DNA of 64,000 nt, taken from a virus. Its lineage: Duplodnaviria; Caudoviricetes. Both the position numbers and the translations under genes were made by a program. Each line of letters begins with the position of its first letter. The stretch's first letter is position 1. The DNA is taken from IMG/VR virus record IMGVR_UViG_3300044675_007236; one strand, 5' to 3'. The notes under the pieces are model-generated. The model saw only the letters and a list, made by a program, of their open reading frames with translations. It searched no databases and had not been told where the DNA came from. Positions 66 to 64,000 of the stretch are shown here, one piece after another.

Positions 66-3000
66 TCATTTTTTTCGCCTTTGTTCGTAAGGTGGTGGTG
101 GGGTCATATCACGTTTAAGTCTGGGTTTTGTGTTAAAAACCACGGACCTGTCGTCACCAGCTTTAGCCGGTTCACTGTAATGAAAAACGCAGCCTTCGAC
201 AATGCCCTGGCCCAACGGTAAACCGTATTTTTTTGCTTCAGTATCCGTTACTTTCTCGCCCCAGTGCGTCATGACCTCACCTTCAATTCCAAGATAATAG
301 GGTCCTGAACCTGTGGGCTCACCCTCCCTGTCGCCGGAAATGTAAGTTGGATAAATCGGAACTGATTTTCGCATGTAAGTCGGCAGCACGTACTCGCAAA
401 CATGTTTGACATATTTGTACGGCACCTCAAGCAAGATCGCATCGTGAACCTGCAGCAAAAGCCTGAACATATCGTGTCCTTGTTTTCGCTGCTTGTCGCG
501 ATAATCCATGATGTAGCCTAGCGCTCGGCTTACTACGGAAGCAATCATGCTTTGGATTGGAAAGTTCATGGCTTGTCGTTCAAACTCAGCTGCAAGATCA
601 CTTGCACCCGAGCTGTCTGGAAACCGTCTAAACCGTCCAAAGCAATTGCAAAGATATCGTGGCACTTCAACTGGTTGTTGATTTTCATCCAGGTAATAGC
701 CGCGAGCTCTTTCCTTGCAACCTTCAAAAAACGGAACAAGGGCTGGGTACGTGTTGAAGATAGTTTTAATTACGGCTTTAGCTTCATCTACCGTAATGTC
801 AATACCTTCCTCTTTTGCGGCGATCGAGATAGCCTTGGCTCCTCGCCCGTAAGCAATACCGAAAATAACAGACTTGGCTACAATGCGTAGGTGTGTTTTT
901 TCAATGGACTTAAGCCCTGTTTTAGTGGGGGCACACTTCAGCCTAAACGCATTAACAGCTACATTTGAATGTATGTCGTAAAAATCAGGATGATTCTCTG
1001 GTAGCTGATTACGCTTAGCATGGTCAATCATGTTAACATCGCCAGCCATGACCGCCATTCCAAAAAGTTCAGCGCCGACATAGTCCGCCTCAACAAGCAC
1101 ATAACCTGGCGAGGCTTTCAACAAGCTTCTTAGTTTGTATTTGTACCTAGATTTAAGCAGCCGTTTGAAGTCGTCGTCGCGTTTTTTGGATATATTTTGA
1201 AGATTAGGCCTGGCACTTGACCATCGACCTGTTTCCTTAGTTTGATATATGTGCGTTCGTACTTTTCCGTCCGAGCAACAAGCCGCGGCTAGCCCTTTAT
1301 CGTACTCCATGTTGCCGTCGTCGTCGTAACAAACTTCTTTAGTGTCCTCATCGATTGAGGGTGGCCGTAAAACCGTTTTTAACGCTTGATCCAGGAAACG
1401 ATAATCTCGGATCAATCTAAGCAACGCTTGCTTATTTTCGTCCTTTATCTCCTGTGCAAGGATAGGAAGAATCTTATTGCTGGTAGACGGATTATGTTGG
1501 CTTTCGACTCCTTTTTGTCTGATCTCCTCCCATGGTTTAGGCGGTTTGCTTGTGTCGTAAAGCGGCATCAAATTCAACGATTTGGCGTCCGCAGGTCTAA
1601 CCCTAACCGGTGCTCCAGTTTCTTTGTCTCGTTTGCCGTTTAGTTGGTGCCCAAACAAAGCTTCTCGAAGATGAACAAGAGACCTGATATTAAAATCAGG
1701 CCAGTTAAAACTCTTTCGAATCTTTGCTTCGATTTCGTTTCTACCGTCTACAAATTGCACCGTCAAAAAGTCGACTCTGGCTTTATCGAGTGTTATGCCG
1801 TTTCGGTGAATATCCAAAACAGCAGGCGTGGCTATTTGAGATTCCCAGAAAGCTTCACGGCAGCAGTTACCGTCGTAGTCGCTATCAAGCATGGGATTGA
1901 ACTTGTAGTACAGCCTAAGTGTGACGTCCGCGTCCCACATGCCATAAGGTAAAAGCGTTTCGTTTGGACATTCGCCGTAACCTTCCAGCTCTTCAGACGA
2001 CAGCCCGTGCTTTTTACAGTACGTTGTTTTCCACTCCTGCAACGCCGTATCGTACCTTGGAGCGTTTAAGTAACGAGCTGCGAGCAGCTCAAGCTTGTAT
2101 TGAGCTGTCTCCTCAATTGCGTGACACATAAGTCCCGTGTCTGCCCCGCCTTCGTACTTAGTTCGGTACCAAGCAGGAACAGTAGAACCAGGCTCAAAAC
2201 CGTCAGCAAAATAGGCATTAAATAATGCCTTACTGCCTTTTGGTAGCTTGTCTAATTGCGGTAGCTCGAGATCGTAAAGCTTACATGAAAAACACTCCTG
2301 AATGTCAATACCGTATCCAACTAGCCACTCCAAGTCAGCGTTAAAGAAATGCCCGACAACCCGCTTTCGTTTAAATTGTAAATCAAGCTTTTGTCCGTCT
2401 TCGCGTGTAACTGTTACCTTACCACCTTTGAAAAAAGTAGTCAGAAGAGCAGCTATCTCTGGATCGTTTAAAACGTCCAGTTCCTCGTTTATCGCACCGC
2501 CTGCGTGATGCAGAATAATACCGATAGCTTTTTTAGGTTTCCAAGCTAGCTGTATAGTTCGCATGTAGGAGCCTTTGTTAACCCCGTGCGAACCGTGCCA
2601 TTCTGCGTCGACCGCAATAACTTCTTCGATCGAAATGTACTCTTTATCTATTTCAGTCAAGTAGTAAATCAGCTCGTCAACTGTACTAACTACATTGTGC
2701 TGAACGGTCGTATCGAAGCTTACGTCTTTGCCGCTTGTGAGATTTACAAACGAAGCAATTCCAGTTTCTAAAGATCTAATTGCAGACTGATCTCTGATAG
2801 TTTGCCGTGGATGCACAACAGTCATCACGGCAGCTTCTGACCAGCTATCCGCTACGCTCTCTTTATCTAACGCTGTGTTGTATTTGTACTTGACGACTTT
2901 ACCTAGCATTTCGTTGACGCCGTGTCCGTCGCCAAGAAGAGCCTTACTTGCGTCAGTTCCAAGACAAAGAATAAAATCCGGTCTAACTATTTTGATCTCG

Positions 3001-3569
3001 TGAGCAAGTAGATAAGCACCGTCTTTTACCCACTGCGCTCTAAACGTCGTTTTACCGTTTGGAGGCATAAACTTCACAAGATTGGTAACATAAATGCTAC
3101 CAATGTTAGGAAGCTTAAACTGCTCAAAAAGTTTGAGCAACATTAAGCCGTCTTCGTCCGCAAAGCACCGTTTTTGATTAAGGGCCGCACCCCATGGATT
3201 TTTGTTAATGATCATTATCTTGGCCGGTCGAGGGCCAGCAACGTCAGCCCCCCACAAGTGCCCAGGAAGAAACTTTACGTCTTTCGTTTGATGTGATGCT
3301 ATTTCTACCGGCAAAACAAACGAAGAGTCTCGCAAAGCACTGCGGATAAGCTCGTACATAAACGAGTCACTAGCGTCGCCTCTCGCTTCAGCGTGTTGTG
3401 TAAAAGCACTTCCACCGTAAAGCGTAGGTAGTTCCGGCGAATCTAAAGGATAAATTGCAGAACTAGTTCTAATTTCTGCTAACTTGTTCAGCTTGAATTG
3501 CTGTGACTTGACATTAGAACGATTAAGAACGTTTACCGTCCCACCTAGTTTTTGTATTTTTCTAGCCAT
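66..3569 (-). CDS. Family A DNA polymerase with N-terminal uracil-DNA-glycosylase-like domain and 3'-5' exonuclease (SPO1-like architecture)
   Basis: PolA motifs TGRWSSARPNLQNI, LVEADYVGAEL, RIVAKSVIFGIAYG, AMNFPIQS, LLQVHDAILLE; exonuclease AVDAEW / FNADLEW / YGMWDAD; UDG family-4-like YVTNLVKFMPP and VHPRQTIR in the N-terminus. Confidence 0.95.
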   Translation of the reverse strand: MARKIQKLGGTVNVLNRSNVKSQQFKLNKLAEIRTSSAIYPLDSPELPTLYGGSAFTQHAEARGDASDSFMYELIRSALRDSSFVLPVEIASHQTKDVKFLPGHLWGADVAGPRPAKIMIINKNPWGAALNQKRCFADEDGLMLLKLFEQFKLPNIGSIYVTNLVKFMPPNGKTTFRAQWVKDGAYLLAHEIKIVRPDFILCLGTDASKALLGDGHGVNEMLGKVVKYKYNTALDKESVADSWSEAAVMTVVHPRQTIRDQSAIRSLETGIASFVNLTSGKDVSFDTTVQHNVVSTVDELIYYLTEIDKEYISIEEVIAVDAEWHGSHGVNKGSYMRTIQLAWKPKKAIGIILHHAGGAINEELDVLNDPEIAALLTTFFKGGKVTVTREDGQKLDLQFKRKRVVGHFFNADLEWLVGYGIDIQECFSCKLYDLELPQLDKLPKGSKALFNAYFADGFEPGSTVPAWYRTKYEGGADTGLMCHAIEETAQYKLELLAARYLNAPRYDTALQEWKTTYCKKHGLSSEELEGYGECPNETLLPYGMWDADVTLRLYYKFNPMLDSDYDGNCCREAFWESQIATPAVLDIHRNGITLDKARVDFLTVQFVDGRNEIEAKIRKSFNWPDFNIRSLVHLREALFGHQLNGKRDKETGAPVRVRPADAKSLNLMPLYDTSKPPKPWEEIRQKGVESQHNPSTSNKILPILAQEIKDENKQALLRLIRDYRFLDQALKTVLRPPSIDEDTKEVCYDDDGNMEYDKGLAAACCSDGKVRTHIYQTKETGRWSSARPNLQNISKKRDDDFKRLLKSRYKYKLRSLLKASPGYVLVEADYVGAELFGMAVMAGDVNMIDHAKRNQLPENHPDFYDIHSNVAVNAFRLKCAPTKTGLKSIEKTHLRIVAKSVIFGIAYGRGAKAISIAAKEEGIDITVDEAKAVIKTIFNTYPALVPFFEGCKERARGYYLDENQQPVEVPRYLCNCFGRFRRFPDSSGASDLAAEFERQAMNFPIQSMIASVVSRALGYIMDYRDKQRKQGHDMFRLLLQVHDAILLEVPYKYVKHVCEYVLPTYMRKSVPIYPTYISGDREGEPTGSGPYYLGIEGEVMTHWGEKVTDTEAKKYGLPLGQGIVEGCVFHYSEPAKAGDDRSVVFNTKPRLKRDMTPPPPYEQRRKK

Positions 3570-4662
3570 CTATCTTCTTCCAAGAAACTTTGACACCTTG
3601 TTTAGCCGCTTCACTGGCAATGTAGTCGTAAAGAAAAGCTTGCTCAAAATCAGCCGGGTCGGTGTCGTCCGGCAACCATACCGAACAACAACCACCAGCT
3701 AATTCTGCTTTTAGCCGTTTTTCTGTTTCCATTAAATTTTCAAGTACTTTAGCTTTTTCTGCGTCTTTACGTACGTCTGGGTCGAGCAAAAATACAACGG
3801 AATGATTTTTAAAACTGGCTGCCAGCAGTTCAAACTGCTTTGTGGTAACAGACGCACCAAGTATTGCACCAAACGAGTCGCCGCCCCGCCAAACACTGGT
3901 AACACCCTCAACAACAATTCCGGTTTCACGTTTTCTCATGTTACCAAAATTATAAATTACTTGTCGTTTAGGTGTTCCTCTTGCGGTGTAGTATTTAGGA
4001 ACGCTTGCCAGTTTCCAATCGATGTCAAAAGGAGCTCTAGCTTGAAATCCAACCATCTTTTTGTTCATGTAGATCGGAATAATTATACGTTTACGGCACA
4101 AAGCATGACTACTGTTTTCGCACCAGTGCACGTTATAATAAACACCAAGCTTTTTTACATCGAATCCACGAATACTAGTCAACCAAACAACAGCTTGGTG
4201 ATCTTGAGGTAATTTGTCTATTCGAACAACTTCTCCGGGCCAGCTCATTCTAAATGAATCAAGATCTACTTCTTTACCCTCTACGACTTCCGCTTTTGTT
4301 AAATCAAAAAGTTTATGCCCGGTAAGCATCACTTCAAGCCGATCGTAACATTCTTGTTTTTTTAGCGATAGCGGACAACCTGCGTTAAAACAAACAACAA
4401 GCCTGTTTTGTATTCTCTGATACTCATCGACTGTTCCATATCTGTGATTAATCAAACATCGAAATCGCGTGTCGTTGCAAAACGGGCAGCAGACGGCGTA
4501 AGTCTCCCCCCAGTTTTGAATGTCAACTGTTTCTTTGTTAGTTAAAAAATCAATGCGACGCTTTCGTTCTTGTTTCTCGCTTGAATTTCCTATTCTTACG
4601 TTTTTGAAAGTCGCTTTAATTCTGTTGTAAAGAAGTAAATTTAAAGGTTTGTCTGCCATCAT
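3562..4662 (-). CDS. DNA primase (Zn finger plus TOPRIM)
   Basis: CCPFCND Zn-ribbon, RIIIPI..VGFQAR, KYY, IVVEGVTSV and LLDPD TOPRIM motifs; lies between helicase and polymerase. True start is probably the MADKPL or MSA codon near 4659. Confidence 0.88.
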   Translation of the reverse strand: MMADKPLNLLLYNRIKATFKNVRIGNSSEKQERKRRIDFLTNKETVDIQNWGETYAVCCPFCNDTRFRCLINHRYGTVDEYQRIQNRLVVCFNAGCPLSLKKQECYDRLEVMLTGHKLFDLTKAEVVEGKEVDLDSFRMSWPGEVVRIDKLPQDHQAVVWLTSIRGFDVKKLGVYYNVHWCENSSHALCRKRIIIPIYMNKKMVGFQARAPFDIDWKLASVPKYYTARGTPKRQVIYNFGNMRKRETGIVVEGVTSVWRGGDSFGAILGASVTTKQFELLAASFKNHSVVFLLDPDVRKDAEKAKVLENLMETEKRLKAELAGGCCSVWLPDDTDPADFEQAFLYDYIASEAAKQGVKVSWKKIDG

Positions 4663-6356
4663 GTCTGCTCTTGTGTTTCATTTGCTTCGTCATAGGAATT
4701 GTTAAAATCAAATTCGTCATCGACATCAGAACCATCAGCTTCCGTATTTTCTTCAATACTTGGTATAAACCCATCAATCGGTGGTGCAACAATTTGACTG
4801 TCAGCAATACTTTCTTTTCGAACTATTCGACCAAGTCTGTCAATTGTGTAACCTTCGGGCGACGTCACAGTGTTAAATAGGCCATCTACTTTAAGAAGAA
4901 CAGGATTGTGTTTTCCAGCTCGTCGCTGCTTAGAACAAGTAAGCTGACCCATGTAGTCGTCATTTAACCTACTACCTGCAAAACAGAAAGCGAAGTTTTC
5001 TCCGAAGCTTTTTGAACCTTTTGCCTGTGTGTGATCCATTCGTTTTGCTGGATTTAAGATAGCGTTGGCTTCGCCCGATAATTGATGAAAGGCCCAAACA
5101 GGGGTGTTAAAAGGCATAGCAATCCTGTTAACAAGGTTTAAGCCAGCTAGCTGATACAAAACGTCTTCCCTTTGTCTTTGCTTCGGGTCAACCGTCACAT
5201 CTCGCTGTACCATCAAGCCTACATAGTCCAAAATAACGGTAGCTACAAAATAATCAGGACCACATCGCTTTAATTCCGTTTTTATAGCCGAAGCTATCTC
5301 AGGAACACCGCGGTTTCCGGCAGTCTTGAACTTCTCGTGTCTACCGGTAAAGTCGAGGCAAACAGTGTGCTCGTTAACAATCGGCAAAACACGTTGGTAC
5401 CTTTGCATTTCAGGTTCAAATACACCGTTGGCAATCTGCTCCTTAAAAAGTACTTTTTCGTAATCGTTTGGTTGTTCTGGATCAGTGCCGAATATTGAAA
5501 CACCGTTGGTTCCCATCACTTGCAATCGTGTGCGAGATATTTGAGCTGAGTACATCAGCAACCTATCTCGAAGTTCGTTTTGCAGTGGAGCCTCGTAGGA
5601 AACTAAAACAGCCAAACCTTTTTTACCGTTCGATTCACCGCTTAAAAACCTAGCAAAAGCTTGTTTCGCAGCCGCGTACCACAGCATTACAGCCAGCGTG
5701 GTCTTGTACGAACCAAACGGAGCTAAAATAGCGTACGCTTCACCCGGAGCCGTACCGCTGTCAAGAAACGTATCAAGAAAACCAATACCGCACGATGTCA
5801 AACTTACATTTGCACGCTGATCCCAGCCGTCGGGCAAAGTTAAATTTCTACCGCCAGATATCGACAAGCCCATCAACGACTCAGTCTGTGCTGATGCTTG
5901 CTCGAAGATAGCAGGTAACTGCCCTATATCATCTAGGTCCCGTAGCTTGGCTATTGCAAGCTTCTTTTGCTGCTCGAGCAAAAACTTAGTCGCAAACTTG
6001 AAAGCAAACGATTCTGACTTTGAACTCTTTGGACCTTCTTGATCTTTAAACAAGTCAGGATCGAAGGCGTAGTAAAGAAAATCGTCTAGCTCGTCGTACT
6101 CTTCGGTATCTAGTTCCAAAAAGCCTTTTTCAATATAGCTAGCGACATCCGCATTAATCTGCGAAAGCTCAGGAAGACAGTTGTTTTCGTTAAAATAATC
6201 CCAAACCACTTTGTAAAGTAACTGATACCCTACAAAATCAAAATGACCCGCAGTCAGGCTCGATCTGAAACTTTCAAATACCTGTTCGTTTCTGAACAGA
6301 ATTGCCAGAAAAAGTTTCAAGTGAGCGTCTGACAGCGTCGATTGCTGCCCACTCAT
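4659..6356 (-). CDS. DnaB-like replicative helicase
   Basis: Walker A-like APFGSYKTT, SYEAP, VILDYVGL, AFHQLS, KQR arginine finger; adjacent to primase. Confidence 0.8.
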   Translation of the reverse strand: MSGQQSTLSDAHLKLFLAILFRNEQVFESFRSSLTAGHFDFVGYQLLYKVVWDYFNENNCLPELSQINADVASYIEKGFLELDTEEYDELDDFLYYAFDPDLFKDQEGPKSSKSESFAFKFATKFLLEQQKKLAIAKLRDLDDIGQLPAIFEQASAQTESLMGLSISGGRNLTLPDGWDQRANVSLTSCGIGFLDTFLDSGTAPGEAYAILAPFGSYKTTLAVMLWYAAAKQAFARFLSGESNGKKGLAVLVSYEAPLQNELRDRLLMYSAQISRTRLQVMGTNGVSIFGTDPEQPNDYEKVLFKEQIANGVFEPEMQRYQRVLPIVNEHTVCLDFTGRHEKFKTAGNRGVPEIASAIKTELKRCGPDYFVATVILDYVGLMVQRDVTVDPKQRQREDVLYQLAGLNLVNRIAMPFNTPVWAFHQLSGEANAILNPAKRMDHTQAKGSKSFGENFAFCFAGSRLNDDYMGQLTCSKQRRAGKHNPVLLKVDGLFNTVTSPEGYTIDRLGRIVRKESIADSQIVAPPIDGFIPSIEENTEADGSDVDDEFDFNNSYDEANETQEQT

Positions 6357-6367
6357 GACGATTTCCT

Positions 6368-7210
6368 TTAAGCGTCTCTGGCTGATTCAACCAAAGACAA
6401 AGCCAATTTTTTAAACCTTGAAGACAAACTAGCACCGTAAACCGAATTGTAAATTTCCGGAAAAACAGTGTAGTCAAAAGCCGCCAAAAATTCTAAATCG
6501 TCTGCGTACTGTTGCATACGCAAAAGAATAGAATCTAAGTTCACATCGGCTTTACGCTTGTCTTCTTCCGCTTGAAGTGTACTGACCGCTAAACAATAAC
6601 GAAAAAGCGGCGATAACTCCAAACGAACATCAAGTAAAGAACAATATACAGCTGAAGCCATAGGCTGCCTAGCCCCTGCGGCTGCAGATGTTCGAAGAAG
6701 TATTTCAGTTTTTGCTCTGTGTGAATCCGCTATAAATTTTGCCTGCACACGTCTAAAAGCGTCTTTAGCAAAATCCGCGACGACTGTTGCGTTATTTTGA
6801 GATGCCAATTGCAAAACAGTCGGCGTTGGTAACGAACTAGATCGCAACGAATAAAACAAAATCCGCACGTATTCAATAGGTGTTTTAGGTTTTGAAATAT
6901 CCGCCACCTTCTGATAAGCAACCAACCACTGGTTCTTTTTTGGCTTTTCTTCTGGTGTGTTGTAACGGTTACCACCGTCCAAGCTTTTAGCTGGATTGTA
7001 AACTTGCGAGGCAGAACTGAGCCTACACAAATCCAAAACACGACGCTCAAGTACGTAAGTTTTCTTAAAAAGATCTACGTAGACTGGAATTTCCGGTTGG
7101 TCGCTGAAAGTGACGCAGGCAGGCCTAGCTGTCGCTGACGGTTTAGGCTGCTTTGAAAATGTCATTCGTATTCCTTCTCCAGCTGTGGATTTTGAAACTT
7201 CTGTCTCCAA
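6368..7210 (-). CDS. Hypothetical protein in replication operon
   Basis: 280-aa ORF, co-oriented and tightly packed between the helicases; no motif recognised. Confidence 0.6.
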   Translation of the reverse strand: METEVSKSTAGEGIRMTFSKQPKPSATARPACVTFSDQPEIPVYVDLFKKTYVLERRVLDLCRLSSASQVYNPAKSLDGGNRYNTPEEKPKKNQWLVAYQKVADISKPKTPIEYVRILFYSLRSSSLPTPTVLQLASQNNATVVADFAKDAFRRVQAKFIADSHRAKTEILLRTSAAAGARQPMASAVYCSLLDVRLELSPLFRYCLAVSTLQAEEDKRKADVNLDSILLRMQQYADDLEFLAAFDYTVFPEIYNSVYGASLSSRFKKLALSLVESARDA

Positions 7211-8670
7211 CCGTGTTTTCTGTAAACTTTCATACGACCTTTTGTGTGCCGATTAAAACCACTGTCCCAGCCGTCAAGATAGTCGTGAATAACACCGCTA
7301 GCTTTGCCTTCAGCGATGCGACTAACGCGGCCTGGAATTTGCGTGCTGTCAATTTCACTGCTGCCGCCGTTTCCACGTATAAGTACAGCTAAGTTGTTAA
7401 ACGAAACACCTACATTCCAAACAGTCGTAGCAATCACTTTTTTCAATTGACCTTTTTCAAACTGCTGCGTGAGCATCTTCTTACGTGTAAAATCCATAAG
7501 CGGTTCTTCGGAACTACAAAACCCTTGTTGCTTGTAGGCCTGGAGCTCTTGCGGTTCCAGCCCATTGTCAGCATACACCAAAGTAAACTCAGGCAACAGC
7601 TTTTTCAAATGAAAAGCGTGAATAATGGTATCTACCGTAATAAGTACTTGCGTATCTTTATCGTAGCTCCTGGCATCTTGTGCGATCAAAGCGTTGCGAC
7701 CGTCGTTTTTCCACAAACCTGCACGTTTTCGTTTAACTTTTTCGTCCGTGTCTATACCGGCACAGGGATTGTAGTCCAGCTTTACGTTTGTCCAATGCAC
7801 TTCAATAGGAACAACCAGTCCCGCCCCCTGGGAAGTCTGGTAATCCACACGATAAATTATCGGCCCAAATATTCCCTCTAATCGCAAATCCTTTCCATCA
7901 AATCGAGCATCGTGCGAAGCTGATAATCCGTAGTTTCGACTGTTTTGCCAGCGAATAAGCTCTTCTGAGGCGTTATCCGCTGCAAGTTCATGGCACTCGT
8001 CTCCGATAAGAATATCGGCGTCCGCCGGACTGTGCTTAAGCGAACCAGCCGTGTAACACATGACTCGTCGGTTTTTAACCTTGTGGCCGCCACCTACAAT
8101 GCCGACGTCACCAACCATGGAAGTAAGCTCGTTGTAGATTCTATCACAAAGAACAGGCACACGCCTGGAAACGATATCAATCCTAGCTTTAGGAAAAACT
8201 GACGCAATAATTCCTATCATAAACGATTTACCGAAACCAGGAGCACAGTCAATTCTACCGCAACTATTGTTGATGACTGCCTGCAAAAACTCAGGTTGAT
8301 GTTCTCGTAACGTGTAATCTTTGATGTTCTGCATGTAAAGCTTGAATCGATCTGGCTTTTTTACCGTGGTAGTATCGACAAAGCTAACTTTGTAGCCCGC
8401 AGCTTTAAGTGTTTTAGATATGGTTTTCCAAAAACCAAAAGGTGTGGCTATTCGTCCTTTATGATCTAGCTCAAACAAAGTGTGGTGGTCGATTGCAAAT
8501 GGCTTTTGTCCGCTTCTTTTAGCCTCGTAAAGCTCTTTTCCAACAAGTTGCCTATACGAGTCGAAACTAAGCTTTGGCGACAATATAGCTTCTATTTTGT
8601 CATCTGGAATTAAAGGATCAACAAGCAAAAAATTACCGTTTTTACGTAAAACAACTTCTTTAGCCATCAT
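7162..8670 (-). CDS. Superfamily 2 (UvsW/XPB-like) helicase
   Basis: CAPGFGKS Walker A, DECHE (DExH), GLSAS motif III, VIATTVWNVGVS and QIPGRVSR motifs; start placed at MMAKEV (8670). Confidence 0.9.
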   Translation of the reverse strand: MMAKEVVLRKNGNFLLVDPLIPDDKIEAILSPKLSFDSYRQLVGKELYEAKRSGQKPFAIDHHTLFELDHKGRIATPFGFWKTISKTLKAAGYKVSFVDTTTVKKPDRFKLYMQNIKDYTLREHQPEFLQAVINNSCGRIDCAPGFGKSFMIGIIASVFPKARIDIVSRRVPVLCDRIYNELTSMVGDVGIVGGGHKVKNRRVMCYTAGSLKHSPADADILIGDECHELAADNASEELIRWQNSRNYGLSASHDARFDGKDLRLEGIFGPIIYRVDYQTSQGAGLVVPIEVHWTNVKLDYNPCAGIDTDEKVKRKRAGLWKNDGRNALIAQDARSYDKDTQVLITVDTIIHAFHLKKLLPEFTLVYADNGLEPQELQAYKQQGFCSSEEPLMDFTRKKMLTQQFEKGQLKKVIATTVWNVGVSFNNLAVLIRGNGGSSEIDSTQIPGRVSRIAEGKASGVIHDYLDGWDSGFNRHTKGRMKVYRKHGWRQKFQNPQLEKEYE

Positions 8671-8775
8671 ATAGCCCATTGTAAACAAGAGATTTTCAAG
8701 TAGAATAGCTATAGCTGCGACGACAGCGAAGCCAATTACCATCTGAGCCTCACAACTCAGATGGTTTTTTTTTGT

Positions 8776-9252
8776 CTAATCCGAAGTTTTGTTTTGTCTT
8801 TCAAACACGTCGACAACTTCATAATGCCCATACTCGCCAGGCTTCCAAGGTGATAAACCTTTGTACTTGCCTGCAATGGTCATAAGCTGAACAAACACGT
8901 CCGGCAAAAAGCCAGTCGGTAAAACAAAAGCAATCGTAGCAATCTGGCCCGGCACTATTGATTCGTGAACGGAATAACGTTCTCTGCCGACTGCATTCTT
9001 GTAGTAAACTCTGTGCCATCTTTTTTCCCTTAGTTCAACGTCGATTGCAGTGTCCCAGTGAATTTTCTTTACTGCGTCTTGATGCGACGAAAGTAGTTTC
9101 GACGCCATTACCATGTTCGATCTATGCCATGTCGACAAAAACAAAATCTTGTCTGTTAGGTTTCTGGCAAACAAAAATCGACCAGACTCCTTGTCCTTAG
9201 CATTACCCAAACAAGGCGACGTAAATCGTATCTGAACGTTGTAATCTTTCAT
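8776..9252 (-). CDS. Putative solo RAMP/Cas7-like protein
   Basis: N-terminal VQIRFTSPCLG, internal ERYSVHESIVPG and C-terminal Gly-rich loop AGKYKGLSPWKPGEYGHYEV follow the RAMP pattern (beta1-TP..G; G..R..G.G.F.V). Recognised by eye only. Confidence 0.45.
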   Translation of the reverse strand: MKDYNVQIRFTSPCLGNAKDKESGRFLFARNLTDKILFLSTWHRSNMVMASKLLSSHQDAVKKIHWDTAIDVELREKRWHRVYYKNAVGRERYSVHESIVPGQIATIAFVLPTGFLPDVFVQLMTIAGKYKGLSPWKPGEYGHYEVVDVFERQNKTSD

Positions 9253-19321: not shown

Positions 19322-19624
19322 CTAACGTCTTCCGTTTCCAGAGACAGTAGCGTAGCCGTCTCCCCAGCCGCTGCCATCGCCGTAACCGTTGCCGTCGCCA
19401 GAGCCGTAGCCGTAGCCGTAGCCGTCGCCGTAGCCGTAGCCGTAGCCGTAGCCGTAGCCGTTGCCGTAGCCGTAGCCGTTGCCGTCGCCAGAGCCGTAGC
19501 CGTAGCCGTTGCCGTCGCCAGAGCCGTTGCCGTGGCCGTAGCCGTAGCCATAGCCAGAGCCGTCGCCCCAGCCGTCGCCGTAGCCGTTGCCTACTGGTTT
19601 AAAATTTTGTTCAACGTTTGGCAT
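19322..19624 (-). CDS. Gly-Tyr/Asp/Asn repeat cassette, type B (MPNVEQxFKPVG...ATVSGxGRR)
   Basis: GGC-NNN hexamer periodicity; AGGAG RBS within the upstream cassette end; conserved terminal boxes. Confidence 0.7.
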   Translation of the reverse strand: MPNVEQNFKPVGNGYGDGWGDGSGYGYGYGHGNGSGDGNGYGYGSGDGNGYGYGNGYGYGYGYGYGDGYGYGYGSGDGNGYGDGSGWGDGYATVSGNGRR

Positions 19625-19627: not shown

Positions 19628-19951
19628 CTAACTCCTTCTTCCACTGCCAGAAACAGTAGCAAAGCCGTAGCCGTAGCCATCACCGTAGCCGCAGCCGTAG
19701 CAATAAGCGGCACCGTTGCCGTAGCCAGAGCCGTAGCCGTCGTCAGAGCCATATCCTTTGCCGTAGCCAGCGCCGTAGCCAGTGCCGTAGCCGCTGCCGC
19801 AACCCCAGCCGCTACCCCATCCGTCGTTGTAGCCCCAGCCGCTGCCCCAGCCGTTACCGTCGCCGTAGCCATCGCCGTCGCCGTCGCCGTCGCGGTTGCC
19901 TACTGGTTTAAACGTATTTGGCAGTACTATCAGTTCTTTTATTTGACTCAT
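19628..19951 (-). CDS. Gly-rich repeat cassette, type A (PNTFKPVG...AAYCYGCG...FATVSGSGRRS)
   Basis: Same periodicity and terminal boxes; 123 bp identical to 56888-57010. Confidence 0.7.
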   Translation of the reverse strand: MSQIKELIVLPNTFKPVGNRDGDGDGDGYGDGNGWGSGWGYNDGWGSGWGCGSGYGTGYGAGYGKGYGSDDGYGSGYGNGAAYCYGCGYGDGYGYGFATVSGSGRRS

Positions 19952-52043: not shown

Positions 52044-52295
52044 TTAAACTCTTCTTCCGCGGCCAGAGACAGTAGCACAGCCGTAGCCGCCGCCATCGCC
52101 GTGGCCGTCGCCGTCGCCGTAGCCGTGGCCGTCGCCGTCGCCGTAGCCGTATCCGTCGCCGTTGCCGTCGCCGTTGCCGTTGCCGTAGCCGTTGCCGTAG
52201 CCCCAGCCGTAGCCCCAGCCGTAGCCGTAGCCGTAGCCGTTGCCGTAGCCGTCGCCACGACCTACTGGTTTAAAACTTTGTTCAACGTTTGGCAT
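52044..52295 (-). CDS. Gly-rich repeat cassette, type B (solo copy)
   Basis: MPNVEQSFKPVG...CATVSGRGRR; followed by an 11-bp perfect hairpin at 51990-52017. Confidence 0.7.
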   Translation of the reverse strand: MPNVEQSFKPVGRGDGYGNGYGYGYGWGYGWGYGNGYGNGNGDGNGDGYGYGDGDGHGYGDGDGHGDGGGYGCATVSGRGRRV

Positions 52296-55576: not shown

Positions 55577-55610
55577 TGTGATTCTCCTAAAGTAAAAGTA
55601 AAAGTAAAAA

Positions 55611-55730
55611 GGATCGGGCAGGTTTGGTTACCTGCTTACGGCTCGCAATCACAATCCAGCCATCGAGTGTATCTGGGATTGCTACTTTCATATCCGCTAT
55701 CTGTCGTAGTTACCGCCACGCCGCCGATCC
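55611..55730 (-). ncRNA. Atypical tRNA-like RNA 1 (120 nt, enlarged central region)
   Basis: Acceptor GGATCGG/CCGATCC, D-like arm CGT...ACG, T-like arm GCAGG-TAACCAAA-CCTGC. Confidence 0.55.
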
Positions 55731-55738
55731 AAAAAATT

Positions 55739-55816
55739 AGCAGAGGTTGGAACCCGACTCCAACACGCACAGGCACTATCTCAGCCCAGTTGTTCTTCCT
55801 CTTAAACTACTCTGCT
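55739..55816 (-). ncRNA. Degenerate tRNA-like RNA 2 (78 nt)
   Basis: Acceptor AGCAGAG/CTCTGCT, TA, D arm GTTT/GAAC, T stem GTTGG/CCAAC with non-canonical loop; irregular anticodon arm. Confidence 0.55.
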
Positions 55817-55822
55817 AATAAA

Positions 55823-55948
55823 AGACCTGGCAGGATTGGTTACCTGCTTAGGGATGGTTACGTGCCAGAACGCCCACCTAGGGTAAATTCTGTACTCATC
55901 ACTCCTATTTTAGTCTATGACTGTGTGTAACTTCCACACCGCTGGTCT
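55823..55948 (-). ncRNA. Atypical tRNA-like RNA 3 (126 nt)
   Basis: Acceptor AGACCAG/CAGGTCT (one mismatch), D arm GTGT/ACAC, T-like arm GCAGG-TAACCAAT-CCTGC nearly identical to RNA 1. Confidence 0.55.
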
Positions 55949-56089
55949 TAAGTTGATTAGGTCAACCACTCCCTTTCCAATTCACTTCGCATACTTGTTA
56001 CCAAATAATTCGTGAAATTAAGTCCGTCAACTTTCGCGAGAGCCGCCAGACACAGGAAATAGAAAAACTAGCTTTTAAAGTAAAGTTAA

Positions 56090-56181
56090 AGGACCGGCCA
56101 GGAATTACCACAATAACCTGCAGGTTCTCTTCTGGGTCACGACCTCCCAAAAGGAACACCTAGCCGTTAGACACCGATCCT
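56090..56181 (-). ncRNA. Atypical tRNA-like RNA 4 (92 nt)
   Basis: Acceptor AGGATCGG/CCGGTCCT, D-like arm TCTA/TAGG, CAGG...CCTG T-like arm with enlarged loop; T-rich trailer shared with RNA 1. Confidence 0.45.
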
Positions 56182-56210
56182 TTTAACTTAGGCAATCACA
56201 GCCGTAGTGG

Positions 56211-56612: not shown

Positions 56613-56885
56613 CTAACGTCTGCCGCTTCCAGAGACAGTAGCAAAGCCGTAGCCGCAGCCGTCGCCGTCGCCGTTACCGTCGCCGTCGCCGTAACCGTAG
56701 CCGTTGCCGTTGCCGTTGCCGTTGCCGCCACCGTTGCCGTCGCTGGTGCCGTAGCCGTAGCCGTAGCTGCCGCCACCGTAGCCGTTACCGTCGCCGTAGC
56801 CGTAGCCGTAGCTGCCGCCACCGTAGCCGTTACCGTCGCCGTAGCCACGACCTACTGGTTTAAAACTTTGTTCAACGTTTGGCAT
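56613..56885 (-). CDS. Gly-rich repeat cassette, type B
   Basis: MPNVEQSFKPVG...FATVSGSGRR; downstream non-coding block shared with the 19.3-kb locus. Confidence 0.7.
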   Translation of the reverse strand: MPNVEQSFKPVGRGYGDGNGYGGGSYGYGYGDGNGYGGGSYGYGYGTSDGNGGGNGNGNGNGYGYGDGDGNGDGDGCGYGFATVSGSGRR

Positions 56886-56887: not shown

Positions 56888-57166
56888 CTAACTCCTTCTT
56901 CCACTGCCAGAAACAGTAGCAAAGCCGTAGCCGTAGCCATCACCGTAGCCGCAGCCGTAGCAATAAGCGGCACCGTTGCCGTAGCCAGAGCCGTAGCCGT
57001 CGTCAGAGCCGTAGCCGTAGCCGTAGCCGTAGCCGTTGCCGTAGCCGTAGCCGTTGCCGTCGCCAGAGCCGTAGCCGTAGCCGTTGCCGTCGCCAGAGCC
57101 GTTGCCGTGGCCGTAGCCGTAGCCATAGCCAGAGCCGTTGCCTACTGGTTTAAACGTATTTGGCAT
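56888..57166 (-). CDS. Gly-rich repeat cassette, type A (chimeric)
   Basis: MPNTFKPVG...; mosaic of the two 19-kb cassettes. Confidence 0.7.
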   Translation of the reverse strand: MPNTFKPVGNGSGYGYGYGHGNGSGDGNGYGYGSGDGNGYGYGNGYGYGYGYGSDDGYGSGYGNGAAYCYGCGYGDGYGYGFATVSGSGRRS

Positions 57167-59019: not shown

Positions 59020-59509
59020 CGCTTTTAGCCTGTGGCTAGCGGCTGTTAGCTGTATCCAGTACCGCTTGAGCCGCAGAAACCACCTTGAGCACATGCAGAT
59101 TTACTTGTTCAGGTTGTGCGGTTTCTGTGGGCTGTTCTGGTTCGATCCCAAGCATAGCACATGTCTCCAAGTACTTCTGCGCATGCGGAGTTACTTGTTC
59201 AGGTTGTGCGGTTTCTGCGGGCGGTTCCGGTTTGAACGGATACACAAAAAGTGTATCTGCTGCATTCGTGTTGTTGCGGATTGCGAACTTCACGCTGCGA
59301 GACCTGAGCTCGTGGCGGATCTCTTCTTGCGAAGCTCCGTCTTTCCGCAACGCAAATTCCAGCCCGATTGAATCAGCTGGCAGACTGTGGGCCTGCCTTG
59401 CGATTCTATCGAACCACTCCTTGCGATTCTTTTTCCTCATTGAACCTATCATACTCAATTCCTTTGAAAAAGGTTTAACGAACAAAGCAACATCAAAGAT
59501 GTCACACAA

Positions 59510-59583
59510 TGGGACTGCCCGGACTTGAACCGAGAACCGAGAGATTATGAGTCTCCTGCTCTAACCTATTGAGCTACAGTCCC
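59510..59583 (-). tRNA. tRNA-Ile2 (CAT anticodon, lysidine type), no encoded CCA
   Basis: GGGACTG TA GCTC AATAGGTTA GAGC A GGAGA CTCATAA TCTC...GGTTCAAGTCC..CAGTCCC A; the GACTCATAATC anticodon arm is typical of Ile2. Confidence 0.9.
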
Positions 59584-59591
59584 AATCGAAA

Positions 59592-59852
59592 CTAGATGTC
59601 TAGCTCTTTAAGAACAGCAAGGACTTCTTCTTTAGTACGTTCAGGATCATCATTCCAGTCAATTACTCTCATCCCCAAATGTTCTTTGAGTTTAGGGTAG
59701 TTCAAGTCCAAAGTACCAGTAGCTTTCAGTAACCCTACTGCGCAAAAGCTACAAGCTTGAGGATCATTAACTTCTACCCAGTGATCGAATGCGTTTCTTG
59801 CTAACGCTCCTTGACACCAGTCTTTTTCTTCTAACAGTTGCCAAGCTTTCAT
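59592..59852 (-). CDS. DUF6197-like paralog (cluster 1, c)
   Basis: MKAW..LE..WCQG...C..G...WND.PERTKEEV...LKELDI. Confidence 0.75.
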   Translation of the reverse strand: MKAWQLLEEKDWCQGALARNAFDHWVEVNDPQACSFCAVGLLKATGTLDLNYPKLKEHLGMRVIDWNDDPERTKEEVLAVLKELDI

Positions 59853-60121
59853 ATGTCTAGCTCCTTAAGTAAAGCGATGACTTCTTCCTTAGTGCGGTCG
59901 GGATGGTCGTTCCATTCCGTAATTTGCAAAGTGGAGTAAAGCGAGAGGTGATGTTCTAATTTTTTAAGTGCAGGGCTACCCGCACCTACCCGTTCTAAAG
60001 CTCCGCGGGTGCAAAAACTACAAGCCATAGCACTATCAATAGGAGCCGGAAGGCCTTCTGCATTTCTTGCCCATGCGTATTGACACCAGCCTTTTTCTTC
60101 TAACAATTCCCAAGCTTTCAT
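59849..60121 (-). CDS. DUF6197-like paralog (cluster 1, b)
   Basis: Same terminal motifs; ATGA stop/start overlap. Confidence 0.75.
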   Translation of the reverse strand: MKAWELLEEKGWCQYAWARNAEGLPAPIDSAMACSFCTRGALERVGAGSPALKKLEHHLSLYSTLQITEWNDHPDRTKEEVIALLKELDI

Positions 60122-60423
60122 ATATCAAGCTCCTTAAGCAAAGCGATGACTTCTTCTTTGGTACGTTCAGGATGGTCGTTCCAAACTGAAATTAACGCAT
60201 GTTGATCTGTTGCCTGCAATTTATCTTGCACGCTATTAACATCGTCATACACACCAATGGCGTCTACAGCTCCGTATTTCGATGTGTGTTTTCTGTCTAT
60301 CGCTCCGAAAATACAAAAGCTAACGGCTTTGTCGCTAATCGGGGAACAAGACCGCCCTTTGTCGCTTCTTGCGTTAACCTTTTGACACCAGCCGTTTTGC
60401 TCGATGATTTGCCAAGCCTTCAT
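60118..60423 (-). CDS. DUF6197-like paralog (cluster 1, a)
   Basis: Same terminal motifs. Confidence 0.75.
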   Translation of the reverse strand: MKAWQIIEQNGWCQKVNARSDKGRSCSPISDKAVSFCIFGAIDRKHTSKYGAVDAIGVYDDVNSVQDKLQATDQHALISVWNDHPERTKEEVIALLKELDI

Positions 60424-61183
60424 AAGCTAAACTCCTTAAGTAAAAAGAAAACAATTAGCTACAGAAATGATGTTCAGTAAGTGAATGCCGCTTCATCATG
60501 TCTTGTTCGACCATTTCTGCCCACTTTTCAAATTCACCGTTATCAAACGAATCTTCAACATCCAGAAAAGGAAAAACCCAACCCAGTTTATTGAAATTAG
60601 AACTGCAAATTTGAGGACCAAGATGACTTGGTCTTGCTGACGTGAATGGGCATTCGCAGTATTCACCGAGCAAGAACATGTATTCTGACAAGTACTGGTG
60701 TGGTAGATTTGGAACTACTGTCCTTGCCCAAAAGATATTATCCGATTTTCTCATTTTGACACGTTATCCGTTTAGAATCCGTTTAGAATCGCCTTGTCGA
60801 TGTTAGCTGCGGCAGCCGCTTCAGCGGCGATACAATCGGCGTTCGCTTGTTCCGACCACTCGCTGAAATCTTTCATCTTTTGCGTGTGATCAGTTTCTGT
60901 CTCTTGCTCGCGGATACAATCAGTATAGTCCGCAATAAATTCTTTAGCCCTTTCAAGTAAAAAAGCTGCTTCTTCAAGCGTACTGAGCATTTGCGAAAAC
61001 CCAGACACGTCATCGTAATCGTTGTCAACAAACCAGTTACGAACGTCTTCAATTGATGCTATATCTTTTCTCAAGGCGTATTGTTGACGACGTAGCAGAA
61101 TTTTCAGAGTATCTTTAGACATAGAAATATTCCTTAACAGAAAGAAAAAAACCGGAGCCTATCCCGACATGGTTGGGGTGGGT

Positions 61184-61750
61184 TTACTCGGACTCGCAAG
61201 AGGTTTGCTCGGCCTGCCGATTGATTTGGCAGCGTAACCACGATCGACCACAGGCGTCGAGGAAATAAATCAAACTTGGCTCTCCGGCGTAGGCTAGTCG
61301 GAACCCGATCAATTCTACCTGCGACCACGGATCTGTCGGGAAATTCTTAACCCTAGCTTCGACCGGCTTGTGCGTCTTGACAATCGAATGTGTGATCTTG
61401 ACAAGATCGTCGAGGTTTAGGTCCTCCCAGCAAGATTTCGTAACTTGATCCACCAGCGGAGCCAATGCCCTTTCTGCTGCTCCTTGTCCGTTGTCACGGT
61501 CATACAGCTGCGGATTTAACGTATCTTTTCCTAGATCTACTTTCATCACACGACCCCTTAAATAGTCTTAATACTGGCCGCCTCTGTTGACTGTGCTAAT
61601 GCCGCTGGTGTACTGTCTTGCGTCTTCCACCGTCATGGGGACCGCACCGGACTCATCCAAAAAACCCATTCCCTGTTGCTTGCTTGCGTTAAACAGTGCC
61701 GCTAGTACTTCCGCTTTGTCCAACTTGCTAATATCAATTGTGTTGCTCAT
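61184..61750 (-). pseudogene. Conserved phage protein (IDISKLDKAEVLAAL...YDRDNG family) interrupted by an in-frame TAA
   Basis: The two ORF-track pieces are in one frame: ...GGQY*DYLRGRVMKVDL...LYDRDNGQGAA; the family as I recall it reads YFDYL.GRVMKVD. Confidence 0.65.
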
Positions 61751-61816
61751 TTTATAGTTCCCAAAAAAGTGTTAGTAAACCGGAGCCTATACCGGCAGAA
61801 GGCAGTTAGAACTAGA

Positions 61817-62077
61817 CTAGATGTCTAGCTCTTTAAGAACAGCAAGGACTTCTTCCTTAGTACGTTCAGGATGGTCGTTCCAGTCAACTACATTCATCCC
61901 TAAATGTTCTTTGAGTTTAGGGTAGTTCAAGTCACAAGTACCAGTAGCTTCCAGTAACCCTACCACGCAAAATCTACGAGCCTGAGGATCGTGAACTCTT
62001 ACACTTTGACCGCTTGCGTTTCTTGCGTAATCTCCTTGACACCAGTCTTTTTCTTCTAACAATTCCCAAGCTTTCAT
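61817..62077 (-). CDS. DUF6197-like paralog (cluster 2, c')
   Basis: Near-copy of 59592-59852. Confidence 0.75.
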   Translation of the reverse strand: MKAWELLEEKDWCQGDYARNASGQSVRVHDPQARRFCVVGLLEATGTCDLNYPKLKEHLGMNVVDWNDHPERTKEEVLAVLKELDI

Positions 62078-62394
62078 ATATCAAGCTCCTTAAGCAAAGC
62101 GATGACTTCTTCTTTGGTACGTTCAAGCTCGTCGTTCCAATTTATCAAACAGTCGTCGCGACCTAGAAACTCCAACTTTTCCTCGGCTTTGCCGATGTCA
62201 AAATATGCCGCTAAGTTTGCAGTATCGGTTTCCCACGGACCAAAAGTTTTAGCTGAGTGCTTTCGAAGAATGGCTCCGACGGCACAAAAGCTAATGGCAG
62301 TCGTATCGACAGGCCTACAAGTTAAGTCTAGTTCGTTTTTTGCCATGCGACCTTGGCACCAGCCGTACTTTTCAAGTATTTCAAAGGCTTTCAT
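62074..62394 (-). CDS. DUF6197-like paralog (cluster 2, b')
   Basis: Same terminal motifs. Confidence 0.75.
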   Translation of the reverse strand: MKAFEILEKYGWCQGRMAKNELDLTCRPVDTTAISFCAVGAILRKHSAKTFGPWETDTANLAAYFDIGKAEEKLEFLGRDDCLINWNDELERTKEEVIALLKELDI

Positions 62395-62678
62395 ATGTCA
62401 AGCTCCTTGAGTAACGCAACAACTTCTTCTTTGGTACGGCTAGAATGATCGTTCCAAACTGAAAGGCTTGCACTGCTTCCAAAACCAAGTTTACGGCAGG
62501 CTTTAGCAAGGTCTTCCGTTAGAGTAGTGCGTGAGCATCGATTCTTTCGATATATCGCACCTATTAAACAAAAGTTAGCTGCAGTTTTGTCGTTAATACT
62601 ACAGCCAACCCCTGTTTCGTCTGTTGCCAGGTTTTCTTGGCACCAGCCGTACTTTTCAAGTAGCTCGAAGGCTTTCAT
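62391..62678 (-). CDS. DUF6197-like paralog (cluster 2, a')
   Basis: Same terminal motifs. Confidence 0.75.
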   Translation of the reverse strand: MKAFELLEKYGWCQENLATDETGVGCSINDKTAANFCLIGAIYRKNRCSRTTLTEDLAKACRKLGFGSSASLSVWNDHSSRTKEEVVALLKELDI

Positions 62679-64000
62679 ATCAGTCTCCGTAGATAGGTAA
62701 AAGTAAACTGTCGCTGTCGCGAAGAGTATATTTTTGGCAAATGGCGATAACCCATTTAAAGTCTCGCTTAGAAATTAAAAGCACCTCGCCGCGACCAGTC
62801 ATACCGACAGCTGTCCAGCCTTTGTTAAGGTACAGTCGCAAAGAAGTTTCGTCCGCTTCAGGCCACAAGGCCTGAAAGTAGCTCAAAACAATCTTAGACT
62901 GCACTGGGTCTTCGGTTGAAAACATCATCAGGTACCTAACAGGATTTTTCATATCTTCCCAGTAGGATCCATGAATTGGAATTTTGAAATTTTGAGGCTT
63001 CTCCTGATAGTCAGAATTGAGACGGATCGCTTTTTCCCTTAGCTCGCAGATATCGTTTCGTCGCATTTCGGGATCAAGTGTTTCTACGATCACGTCTACA
63101 AATTTCTTGTAGCGATCTACTGTGCATTTCAAACACGGTAGACCGCTGATTTTGTCGCAACAGTTAGAGCAAAGATTTCTAAAACTAGCGTCGTTCATTT
63201 CTTTTTTCCCCTTTTATTACCACGTCTTTAGCGACACCAAATCCGCACAGTTTGGCAAACATTTCCTGCCAATCGAAAGCTTTTTCGTTCCACTCTCCGT
63301 CGATTTGTAATGGATGCGGGTTTAGAAGCTCTTCAAAATGGGCAAAAAGGTCGTGTTTGTCCGGTGCTTTCGACTTGCCGACTAGCTCCGCCGCTTTTTC
63401 AAGCGTCATTGTCGTTTTCATTTCTTTTTCCTCCATGGAACTTGAATTTCTGCAACTCTGCGGTTGGCTTCTGCACATTGTTTGTCGATACCGTCAAGCT
63501 CGGCAATAAGCCTTTCAGCAATATCGCCAAAATAAATTCGTATAAGCCTTTTGAGAATCTGGCGATCTCCGTGAGGCCAAACCAGACCGGCCTGCTTTAA
63601 GCTGTTTATGACAGCTTCGAGAACGATTGAATCTGTACTTTCCATGTCATTTGCTTTCTAAGTATTGATAGGCGGGACTAAGCTCGCGATCGTTCCAGTA
63701 GGTACCTACGATCATGCGATGCTGATCAACTGGTGTTTCGACTTTTATCGAAAGACCAGCTGCAATTTTTTCTTCAACAGCTGCGTTAAGTTTTTCAGAA
63801 CGCAAACGGTATGAATCCCAACAAAAGCGGCGATAGTCCTCTAGGGGTAGAGATCCAGCATAAACTGCTGTTATCGATTTACAGTTACGGGCAACCCTTT
63901 TGACAACCAAATGCGTCCAGTCAGCGGGAGGTATTTCGTCTACGAAAACGATAATACCAATTGGTTTTCGAAGCCGATTCCAGACAGTCGCTTCAAATAG

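Follow-up and report, generated by a model that had tools for sequence, protein, structure and literature searches.

The window analyzed here is a stretch of 64,000 nucleotides from IMG/VR virus record IMGVR_UViG_3300044675_007236 (175,160 bp, 84% complete), a virus seen repeatedly in many lake-water metagenomes. Our subject is one small gene within it, ORF158—an open reading frame (ORF) of 158 amino acids (aa)—and the company this gene keeps (Table 1). Upstream lies ORF274, the stop codon of which shares 4 nt with the ATG of ORF158 (ATGA); downstream, across a non-coding spacer of ~105 nt, lies a gene for an SF2 helicase. An earlier note on this DNA, made from the letters alone, had placed ORF158 in a phage replication operon, between an SF2 helicase and a 'Nop-like' ORF that it overlaps by 4 nt, and had taken it for a solitary RAMP protein. 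The placement is correct in all of these details, and the protein, when modeled, has the fold that was proposed.

Table 1. Positions of genes and other features in the window
Feature	Position	Strand	Size	Remarks
DnaB-like replicative helicase	4659..6356	minus		PHROG_19, E 6.9e-12; downstream end of conserved module
Conserved protein	6368..7210	minus	250–280 aa	No family match; between SF2 helicase and DnaB-like; position kept in 28 loci
SF2 helicase	7162..8670	minus		ResIII + Helicase_C, PHROG_16; XPB-like by sequence; downstream of ORF158
Non-coding spacer	8671–8775	either		After RAMP stop, before helicase start (~8670)
ORF158	8776..9252	minus	158 aa	Predicted divergent single-RRM RAMP, Vipr-like; N-terminal T-x-P-x-L motif, G-loop GKYKGLSPWKPGEYG
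ORF274	9249..10073	minus	274 aa	TasR-like; RuvC/RNase H-like N-domain + C-terminal Nop-like helical domain
SbcC/Rad50-like ATPase	10070..12208	minus		Stop overlaps ORF274 start
SbcD/Mre11-like phosphoesterase	12198..13412	minus		Likely true start ~13316
Opposite-strand ORF	13270–13701	plus	~125–143 aa	Just upstream of sbcD
Gly-X peptide genes (five, paralogous)	19322–19624, 19628–19951, 52044–52295, 56613–56885, 56888–57166	minus	83–107 aa	Contain the GGY-NNN tracts
tRNA-Met	59509–59584			ARAGORN, Rfam

The fold and family of ORF158

The AlphaFold2 model of ORF158 was built with 23 homologs (pLDDT 93.7, pTM 0.86). The protein starts (MKDYNVQIRFTSPCLGN) with a beta-strand, residues 2–10, that leads into the sequence TSPCLG (residues 11–16), and continues through a helix (40–54) to further beta-strands that include a hairpin (79–85/91–99). 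A helix (117–130) is then followed by a Gly-rich loop of 13 residues (131–143) and by the last strand (144–151); residues 128–146 read GKYKGLSPWKPGEYGHYEV, with a short tail beyond. This is the plan that had been made out from the translation—a beta-strand and TSPCLG at the start, a Gly-rich loop and a final strand at the end—and the model contains what distinguishes the RAMP superfamily, an RRM/ferredoxin-like core with a Gly-rich loop that connects helix 2 to the last strand. As modeled, ORF158 is a single-RRM RAMP with a Gly-rich loop (G-loop) and a beta-hairpin 'thumb'.

When the model is compared with the PDB by Foldseek, the top matches are all backbone subunits of class 1 CRISPR complexes: type VII Cas7, Csm3 and Cmr4. 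Matches to Cas7 and Csm3 have E-values of 2.5e-7 to 1e-5, TM-scores of 0.6–0.7 and a Foldseek probability of 1.00, which bears out the RAMP (Cas5/6/7) layout of the earlier note and identifies the fold as that of an RRM-core RAMP, and not as a non-RRM fold. Among the 2.3 million clusters of the AlphaFold DB, where RAMPs again match with a probability of 1.00, a particular group stands out. The paper that describes the discovery of VIPR (Viral Interference Programmable Repeat) names five non-CRISPR RAMP seeds, termed Vipr (bioRxiv 10.64898/2026.04.26.720920), and these—A0A1F4YLN4, A0A2D6XG06, X1U2U4, A0A661D0E2 and A0A0F9A1L0—occupy ranks 1, 2, 3, 7 and 8, respectively. Since they are the top structural neighbors of ORF158, the structural guess of the earlier reader was right. 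So was the mention in the same note of stand-alone phage RAMPs with GGY-patterned RNAs: these are real, and are the VIPR systems (bioRxiv 10.64898/2026.04.26.720920). In the ESM Atlas, the first neighbors beyond the protein's own family are RAMPs of PF03787 (TM 0.73).

Judged by the number of its homologs and the strength with which their motifs are conserved, ORF158 is a real, conserved gene. There are 28 close homologs, and 157 cluster representatives (50% identity) match it at E<=1e-3. Conservation is tight at F10, L15, G16, H96, E97, G128, G132, S134, P135 and G142, and the pair H96–E97 is kept in 98–99% of the family. Family clusters in the ESM Atlas are 96–100% viral, and tblastn against 50,697 phage records (INPHARED) finds no relatives among isolates. 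One protein of 6,824 aa, P0041, with 25 matched stretches, had the appearance of a giant fusion; it was rejected as a false positive caused by coiled-coil repeats. Pfam (including its RAMP models, PF03787), PHROG, NCBIfam and PADLOC (including its Cas models) give no matches to ORF158 or to 93 members of its family. Because RAMPs are weakly conserved in sequence, the lack of a match to curated models is to be expected. Sequence of the operon is found in RNA libraries, at the level of contigs: a contig from a lake metatranscriptome, identical in sequence, spans 9018–9241, and such contigs carry no information on strand, ends or small RNAs. The median isoelectric point of the family is 9.3, and Arg/Lys and aromatic positions are conserved; conserved surface residues that are basic and rich in aromatics suggest a nucleic-acid-binding character.

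Likeness to Vipr can also be discerned in the sequence. The Vipr protein of Escherichia phage SUSP1 (PDB 36pp_D; gene L007:2539–3126) matches the ORF158 profile at E 0.98 when the profile comprises 23 sequences and at E 0.024, as the top PDB match, when it comprises 93. By hhalign, the ORF158 family matches SUSP1 Vipr over helix 2, the G-loop and the last strand (probability 76%, E 2.3e-5), and matches a second canonical Vipr with a probability of 84%; the two matches span 37–45 columns. The N-termini align residue by residue, I8-T-G-T-R-P-F-L-S-H17-A in SUSP1 versus I8-R-F-T-S-P-C-L-G-N17-A in ORF158, and have T11, P13, L15 and A18 in common.

The residues by which SUSP1 Vipr locks onto GGY are, according to cryo-electron microscopy, H17, R138, D177, W178 and R179, and silencing is lost in the mutants D177A and R138A (bioRxiv 10.64898/2026.04.26.720927). 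In ORF158, the counterpart of H17 is N17, at a position that varies within the family, and that of D177 is P135, proline in 95% of the family. R138 corresponds, probably, to E97, the alignment there being of low confidence. W178 is represented by W136 (aromatic in 89% of the family), and R179 by K137, a conservative change. On this comparison, ORF158 keeps a Vipr-like scaffold without the GGY-reading pocket. That ORF158 belongs, as a divergent member, to the Vipr-like branch of the RAMPs, and that it serves replication or recombination, are two parts of one reading to which, taken jointly, we incline by a little over even chances.

Scans for a guide RNA

Known vrRNAs consist of 9–16 tandem pentanucleotides (YNNGG) and a conserved 3' tail; NNNGG, YNNNG and NNNNG variants occur, as do other fixed trinucleotides, GAC/NN for example (bioRxiv 10.64898/2026.04.26.720920). 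We scanned both strands for each motif and, without regard to motif, for any three near-invariant columns at a period of 5 over ten units. Its positive controls, the four vrRNAs of SUSP1 and a 12-unit array in L022, a relative of the present phage, are all recovered. In the window, and in the whole 175-kb record, pentanucleotide arrays of any motif do not rise above the level of shuffled controls, and scans at periods of 4, 7 and 8 found nothing. Because this record is incomplete, whole records of relatives were scanned, too. One relative, 100% complete at 204,794 bp and bearing terminal repeats, contains no vrRNA array, nor does a relative that is 94% complete; two others gave one match each, at chance level. 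Among the 20-kb loci of 27 relatives, none has an array within 10 kb of the ORF158 homolog apart from L022, where the array stands beside a separate vipr gene.

L022 (IMGVR_UViG_3300016667_000797) carries a complete, canonical VIPR system at 1508–3200. Its vipr gene (L022:1508–2200) is 33% identical to that of SUSP1, and is followed by ~12 YNNGG vrRNA units, each of which ends in a tail like GGGCCGCAAGGCTAG. The ORF158 homolog of this phage is a different gene, located in the replication operon ~7 kb downstream of the VIPR system, and the array, adjoining as it does the canonical vipr gene, was rejected as a partner for it. Since L022 has both, canonical Vipr and the ORF158 family are distinct, paralogous lineages that are able to coexist in one phage. 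The genome from which the window comes has no canonical vipr gene.

Other kinds of repeats fare no better. There are no CRISPR-like or TIGR-like interspaced repeats in the first 20 kb of the window, and no tandem arrays in the 175-kb genome besides coding repeats. PADLOC Cas models match neither ORF158 nor its neighbors, and none of the partners of a class 1 effector—CRISPR array, Cas5, Cas8/Cas10, Cas6 or Cas1-2—is present; the neighbors are replication genes. Repeat scans and PADLOC thus agree with the earlier note that the gene is accompanied by no CRISPR array and no other cas genes.

That note had also put forward candidate RNAs elsewhere in the window, and these do not survive. The GGY-NNN cassettes, with a period of 6 nt, are the bodies of the five Gly-X peptide genes, which take the form MPNVEQSFKPVG-(Gly-X)n-ATVSGSGRR and form tandem pairs at two sites. 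A leader, MPN[VEQS]FKPVG, precedes a Gly-X body rich in Tyr, Asn, Asp and Trp, and the end is ATVSG-x-GRR. Before each start there is a Shine–Dalgarno-like site, and in the conserved tail the Arg codons alternate among CGT, AGG and AGA while those for Val and Gly vary at third positions. The cassettes are lacking, moreover, in four of the five near-complete relatives that have the RAMP gene. Protein-coding by the evidence of their Shine–Dalgarno sites and synonymous codons, of the wrong period, and missing from most RAMP-carrying relatives, they were rejected as guide RNA. The genes themselves look as if they encode related, Gly-rich peptides that are secreted or processed.

Nor does the 'tRNA-like array' consist of recognizable tRNAs: ARAGORN and Rfam find one tRNA in the window, tRNA-Met. 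A 630-bp intergenic gap, 55577–56210, contains repeated hairpin units (55608–55641 and 55820–55853, for instance), none of them a tRNA by ARAGORN or Rfam. Beside tRNA-Met, from 59590 to 62700, are diverged direct repeats of 126–300 nt and 68–90% identity; each ends in a CAT...AAGGAG-like start on the reverse strand, suggesting tandem, small, paralogous genes.

Closer to ORF158, the spacer is the only conserved non-coding candidate for an RNA. It contains a 10-bp hairpin (8738–8765) situated ~10 nt after the RAMP stop codon and beside an A9/T9 run, and a second hairpin as well. Eight of the ten pairs in the stem covary across 12 loci. On the plus strand, this is the best intrinsic-terminator-like site within the first 20 kb, and the hairpin lies ~35 nt downstream of a TAGAAT box (8701–8706; TACAAT or TAAAAT in relatives, by eye). 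The spacer may therefore, read in this direction, give rise to a ~60-nt antisense RNA, convergent with the RAMP gene; on the minus strand, the same sequence is a candidate two-hairpin element in the operon mRNA. Folding z-scores are -4.8 for a 68-nt plus-strand RNA and -3.2 for the sense RNA. The evidence for strand is mixed: several A.C mismatches become G.U pairs in the antisense, yet the sense orientation gives the better fold for 12 of the 17 orthologous elements. Rfam has no match for the spacer. It is well conserved where the TasR-like gene is present, and absent from distant lineages in which the RAMP and helicase genes overlap. Since the RAMP is kept where the spacer is missing, the spacer cannot be an obligate partner of it.

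Cas6 enzymes are RAMPs that bind hairpins, and it is conceivable that ORF158, too, is a metal-independent endoribonuclease, one that cuts the hairpin downstream of its own gene and so separates or stabilizes the helicase part of the mRNA. The near-invariance of H96–E97, and the proximity of a covarying hairpin to the stop codon, are what such an enzyme might lead one to expect. Distant lineages keep the protein without the hairpin, however, and the structural neighbors of ORF158 are Cas7, Csm3 and Vipr, the best Cas6 match ranking 12th among the AlphaFold DB clusters with a TM-score of 0.41. We consider a Cas6-like activity very unlikely.

A second possibility is that ORF158 is a true RNA-guided DNA-binding protein of the VIPR type whose guide is unconventional—single, non-repetitive, degenerate, transcribed from the spacer or supplied in trans—and whose vap-like helpers are the TasR-like protein and the helicase. 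Vipr proteins are its closest structural neighbors, and W136 and K137 match GGY-contacting residues, but the essential D177 has become proline almost throughout the family, and the position of H17 is variable. In some types of VIPR there is just one vrRNA, and the vap genes encode a helicase or nuclease; there are also 5-mer motifs that depart from the canonical one. Yet no period-5 array is present in this genome, in the complete relative, or within 10 kb of the 27 loci. The spacer, with its covarying stems directly downstream of the gene, would be an obvious source of guide were it not absent from distant lineages that retain the RAMP–helicase pair. RAMP and TasR-like neighbor both belong to guide-RNA-binding families, but they are found in a core operon, unlike the small, accessory VIPR loci with their flanking intergenic arrays, and in L022 a canonical VIPR is present in addition. 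Taking these points together, we judge an unconventional guide to be improbable, if still worth keeping in mind. With no working candidate for a guide RNA and no 5-nt periodic array, a guide-RNA filament formed by ORF158 remains conjecture.

The replication operon and a proposed role for ORF158

Alignment of the conserved N-terminus puts the true start of the helicase gene at ~8670, and not at the first ATG, 8742. Among solved structures, archaeal XPB-type ATPases come closest to its product in sequence (E 6e-8); the protein is an SF2 helicase without an HD domain, and not Cas3. Gene order around ORF158 is the same in 28 loci of 40–61% identity: SbcD, SbcC, a protein of ~270–330 aa, RAMP and SF2 helicase (~500 aa), then a ~260-aa protein, DnaB-like helicase, a ~360-aa protein, PolA with a fused UDG domain, and thymidylate kinase. 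Six more distant members, at 24–34% identity, were viewed, and four had sufficient context to be judged. All four have SbcC, RAMP and SF2 helicase, with two small ORFs intervening between SbcC and RAMP in one of them; in the same four, the stop of the RAMP gene and the start of the helicase gene overlap, and there is no ~270-aa protein. The synteny that the earlier note suggested examining in related large phages is therefore that of RAMP and SF2 helicase, adjacent in the 28 loci and the four distant ones alike, and the invariant core is the RAMP–helicase pair beside SbcCD. The tight packing of ORF158, overlapped on one side and closely followed on the other, is not that of a minimal, accessory VIPR-type locus (vipr + vap).

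The clade consists of large freshwater phages of 175–220 kb, uncultured, abundant and widespread. In four relatives (L002:15727–19281, L004, L006 and L048), PolA, ~1,180 aa, carries the fused UDG-family domain (PF03167 + PF00476), and in L048 DNA polymerase A appears to be split. The ORF just upstream of sbcD is the sole opposite-strand gene in the module. The long 'intergenic' region there was considered as an RNA gene and rejected: it holds this conserved ORF, which is gene-called in L002, L004 and L006.

ORF274 was modeled with 18 orthologs (pLDDT 90.6) and aligned exhaustively (VIA-align) with 48,161 PDB representatives. Residues 5–272 match TIGR-TasR, 9mty_B (Z 11.8, 227 residues aligned); residues 115–274, the C-terminal Nop half, match TasH (Z 7.8); residues 3–257, most of the protein, match ISCro4 of the IS110 family (Z 6.7); and residues 1–105 match RuvX, YqgF and other RuvC-like folds (Z ~5). 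Foldseek agrees, and the 'Nop-like' description of this neighbor was apt. The invariant residues are H10, N47, H139, P167 and W169, with no Asp or Glu among them, and the RuvC-like domain is for this reason predicted to have no DEDD nuclease activity—to be dead, in short. Tandem Repeats Finder (TRF) detects no TIGR array (18/36-nt period; alternating 8–12-nt repeats and 9-nt spacers) near ORF274 or in the genome, and there are no insertion-sequence ends and no 5' region of the size of a bridge RNA. TRF repeats with periods of 18/27/36, which account for all of the 18/36-nt periodicity in the genome, were rejected as TIGR arrays; they are collagen-like coding repeats. Outside of the window, at G000:C1:123314–123964 and 163517–164232, long repeats of period 9/18/27/36 represent collagen-like Gly-X-Y tracts, probably of fiber proteins. 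ORF274 and ORF158 are translationally coupled by the ATGA overlap, and the TasR-like gene precedes the RAMP gene in most lineages but is absent from the most distant ones.

What, then, does ORF158 do? Its universal linkage to SF2 helicase and SbcCD suggests a role in replication or recombination, and we lean, with modest confidence, to the view that ORF158, a Vipr-like protein, binds nucleic acid as a partner of the helicase and has been recruited to one or the other. It would bind single-stranded nucleic acid, RNA or DNA, on the face formed by the RRM and G-loop; would oligomerize, as other Cas7 and Vipr proteins do; and would work with the SF2 helicase, joined in most lineages by the nuclease-dead, TasR-like Nop protein. 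Substrates would be intermediates of replication or recombination, such as R-loops, D-loops and SbcCD-resected ends. Array-programmed silencing of competing elements would not be the job of ORF158, and any RNA that it used would not be a tandem-repeat guide.

Several points weigh against this view. The presumed binding of single strands and the probable oligomerization are inferred from the fold, and partnership with the helicase is suggested by gene neighborhood. The genome is 84% complete and an array could sit in the missing part—less likely, since the complete relative has none—and guide patterns that are very degenerate or non-periodic would escape the scans. The conserved W136 and K137 coincide with GGY-contacting W178 and R179 of SUSP1 Vipr, and related recognition of RNA may thus persist in part. 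VIPR types III–V are reported with nuclease or helicase accessory genes (bioRxiv 10.64898/2026.04.26.720920), and the ORF158 family may already be among the 2,664 Viprs that have been catalogued.

The substrate might be DNA only, in which case ORF158 would be a factor that coats single-stranded DNA (ssDNA), akin to single-stranded DNA-binding proteins (SSBs) or mediators and built on the RAMP fold, that covers the ssDNA that SbcCD exposes by resection and the helicase by unwinding. The 175-kb record (84% complete) contains no PF00436 SSB and no member of the RecA family, and for this reason such a role is conceivable; but phage SSBs are diverse (gp32 and gp2.5 types), PF00436 being one type among them. 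A basic protein in a core operon, between nuclease and helicase, would be well placed for the task, and Cas7 and Vipr proteins polymerize on single strands with a footprint of 5–6 nt (bioRxiv 10.64898/2026.04.26.720927), yet no RAMP is known as an SSB. We think the idea doubtful as a separate explanation; it overlaps the helicase-partner view and differs only in the substrate.

A solitary RAMP in a virus could also be a decoy, a mimic that poisons type I or III CRISPR complexes of the host, or the VIPR filaments of rival phages, and decoys and orphan components do figure in VIPR conflicts. Anti-defense genes reside at variable, accessory sites, however, whereas ORF158 has held a fixed position in a core replication operon, coupled to a helicase, over deep divergence, and we give the decoy almost no credence. 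Context and the spacer-less lineages together make the decoy, the Cas6-like enzyme and the VIPR with an unconventional guide all less likely than a partner of the helicase.

There is a bolder version of this last view. Vipr-like RAMP, nuclease-dead TasR-like Nop protein and SF2 helicase could constitute a previously unknown, array-less RNA–DNA machine that uses one dedicated, non-repetitive RNA—the spacer transcript, perhaps—or nascent transcripts, and forms or resolves R-loops for the start or restart of phage replication. This is a long shot, we admit. If true, proteins of the guide-RNA type would have a housekeeping role in replication, and the array-less machine may represent the ancestral setting out of which the effectors of VIPR and TIGR came by recruitment. 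More generally, if ORF158 and ORF274 act on replication intermediates, RAMP and Nop folds acquire a concrete function outside of defense, and RNA-guided effectors would have a candidate for their housekeeping origin, or else an example of exaptation. VIPR (2026) and TIGR-Tas (2025) were each presented as weapons that mobile elements program by means of arrays, and Vipr has been proposed as the ancestor of CRISPR RAMPs; here, in a core operon of freshwater phages, relatives of both effector folds lie side by side with no array. Orphan vrRNAs without vipr are described in the literature. VIPR and TIGR-Tas themselves are published, but the literature that we searched gives no account of a Vipr-like gene that lacks vrRNA and is fixed in a replication operon, with a TasR-like gene as its neighbor. 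ORF158 and ORF274 are small proteins and easy to express, so binding, filament formation and stimulation of the helicase can be tested directly.

Comparison with known systems

The module as a whole resembles those for recombination-dependent replication in phages, such as that of T4, with gp46/47 (Rad50/Mre11) and the SF2 helicase UvsW: in both, an SbcCD-type nuclease and an SF2 helicase belong to one replication cluster. No RAMP-fold or Nop-fold members are known in modules of the T4 type.

ORF274 has the RuvC-like plus Nop-domain architecture of TIGR-Tas and IS110 proteins (Faure et al. 2025, PMC12045711), but differs from them in having neither conserved acidic catalytic residues nor a TIGR array. 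ORF158 has the RRM, G-loop and thumb of the CRISPR Cas7 family (type VII Cas7; type III Csm3 and Cmr4), but is smaller, comes from a family that is essentially viral, and lacks a CRISPR array, other cas genes, and matches to the Pfam RAMP and PADLOC models.

With Vipr the comparison is closest. ORF158 is the shorter of the two, 158 aa versus ~195 aa, and the GGY contacts D177 and H17 are Pro and Asn in it, while R138 is probably Glu. It resides in a core replication operon beside an SF2 helicase, whereas VIPR is a two-gene accessory locus; the long intergenic regions that flank VIPR loci are absent around it; and neither its genome nor complete relatives have a vrRNA array. Both are nevertheless small RAMPs that phages encode, with a G-loop, a thumb and just one RRM, and both have the T-x-P-x-L motif at the N-terminus and the block A-G-x-x-x-G-x-x-x-W-[KR]-P...G-x-[FY] at the C-terminus.

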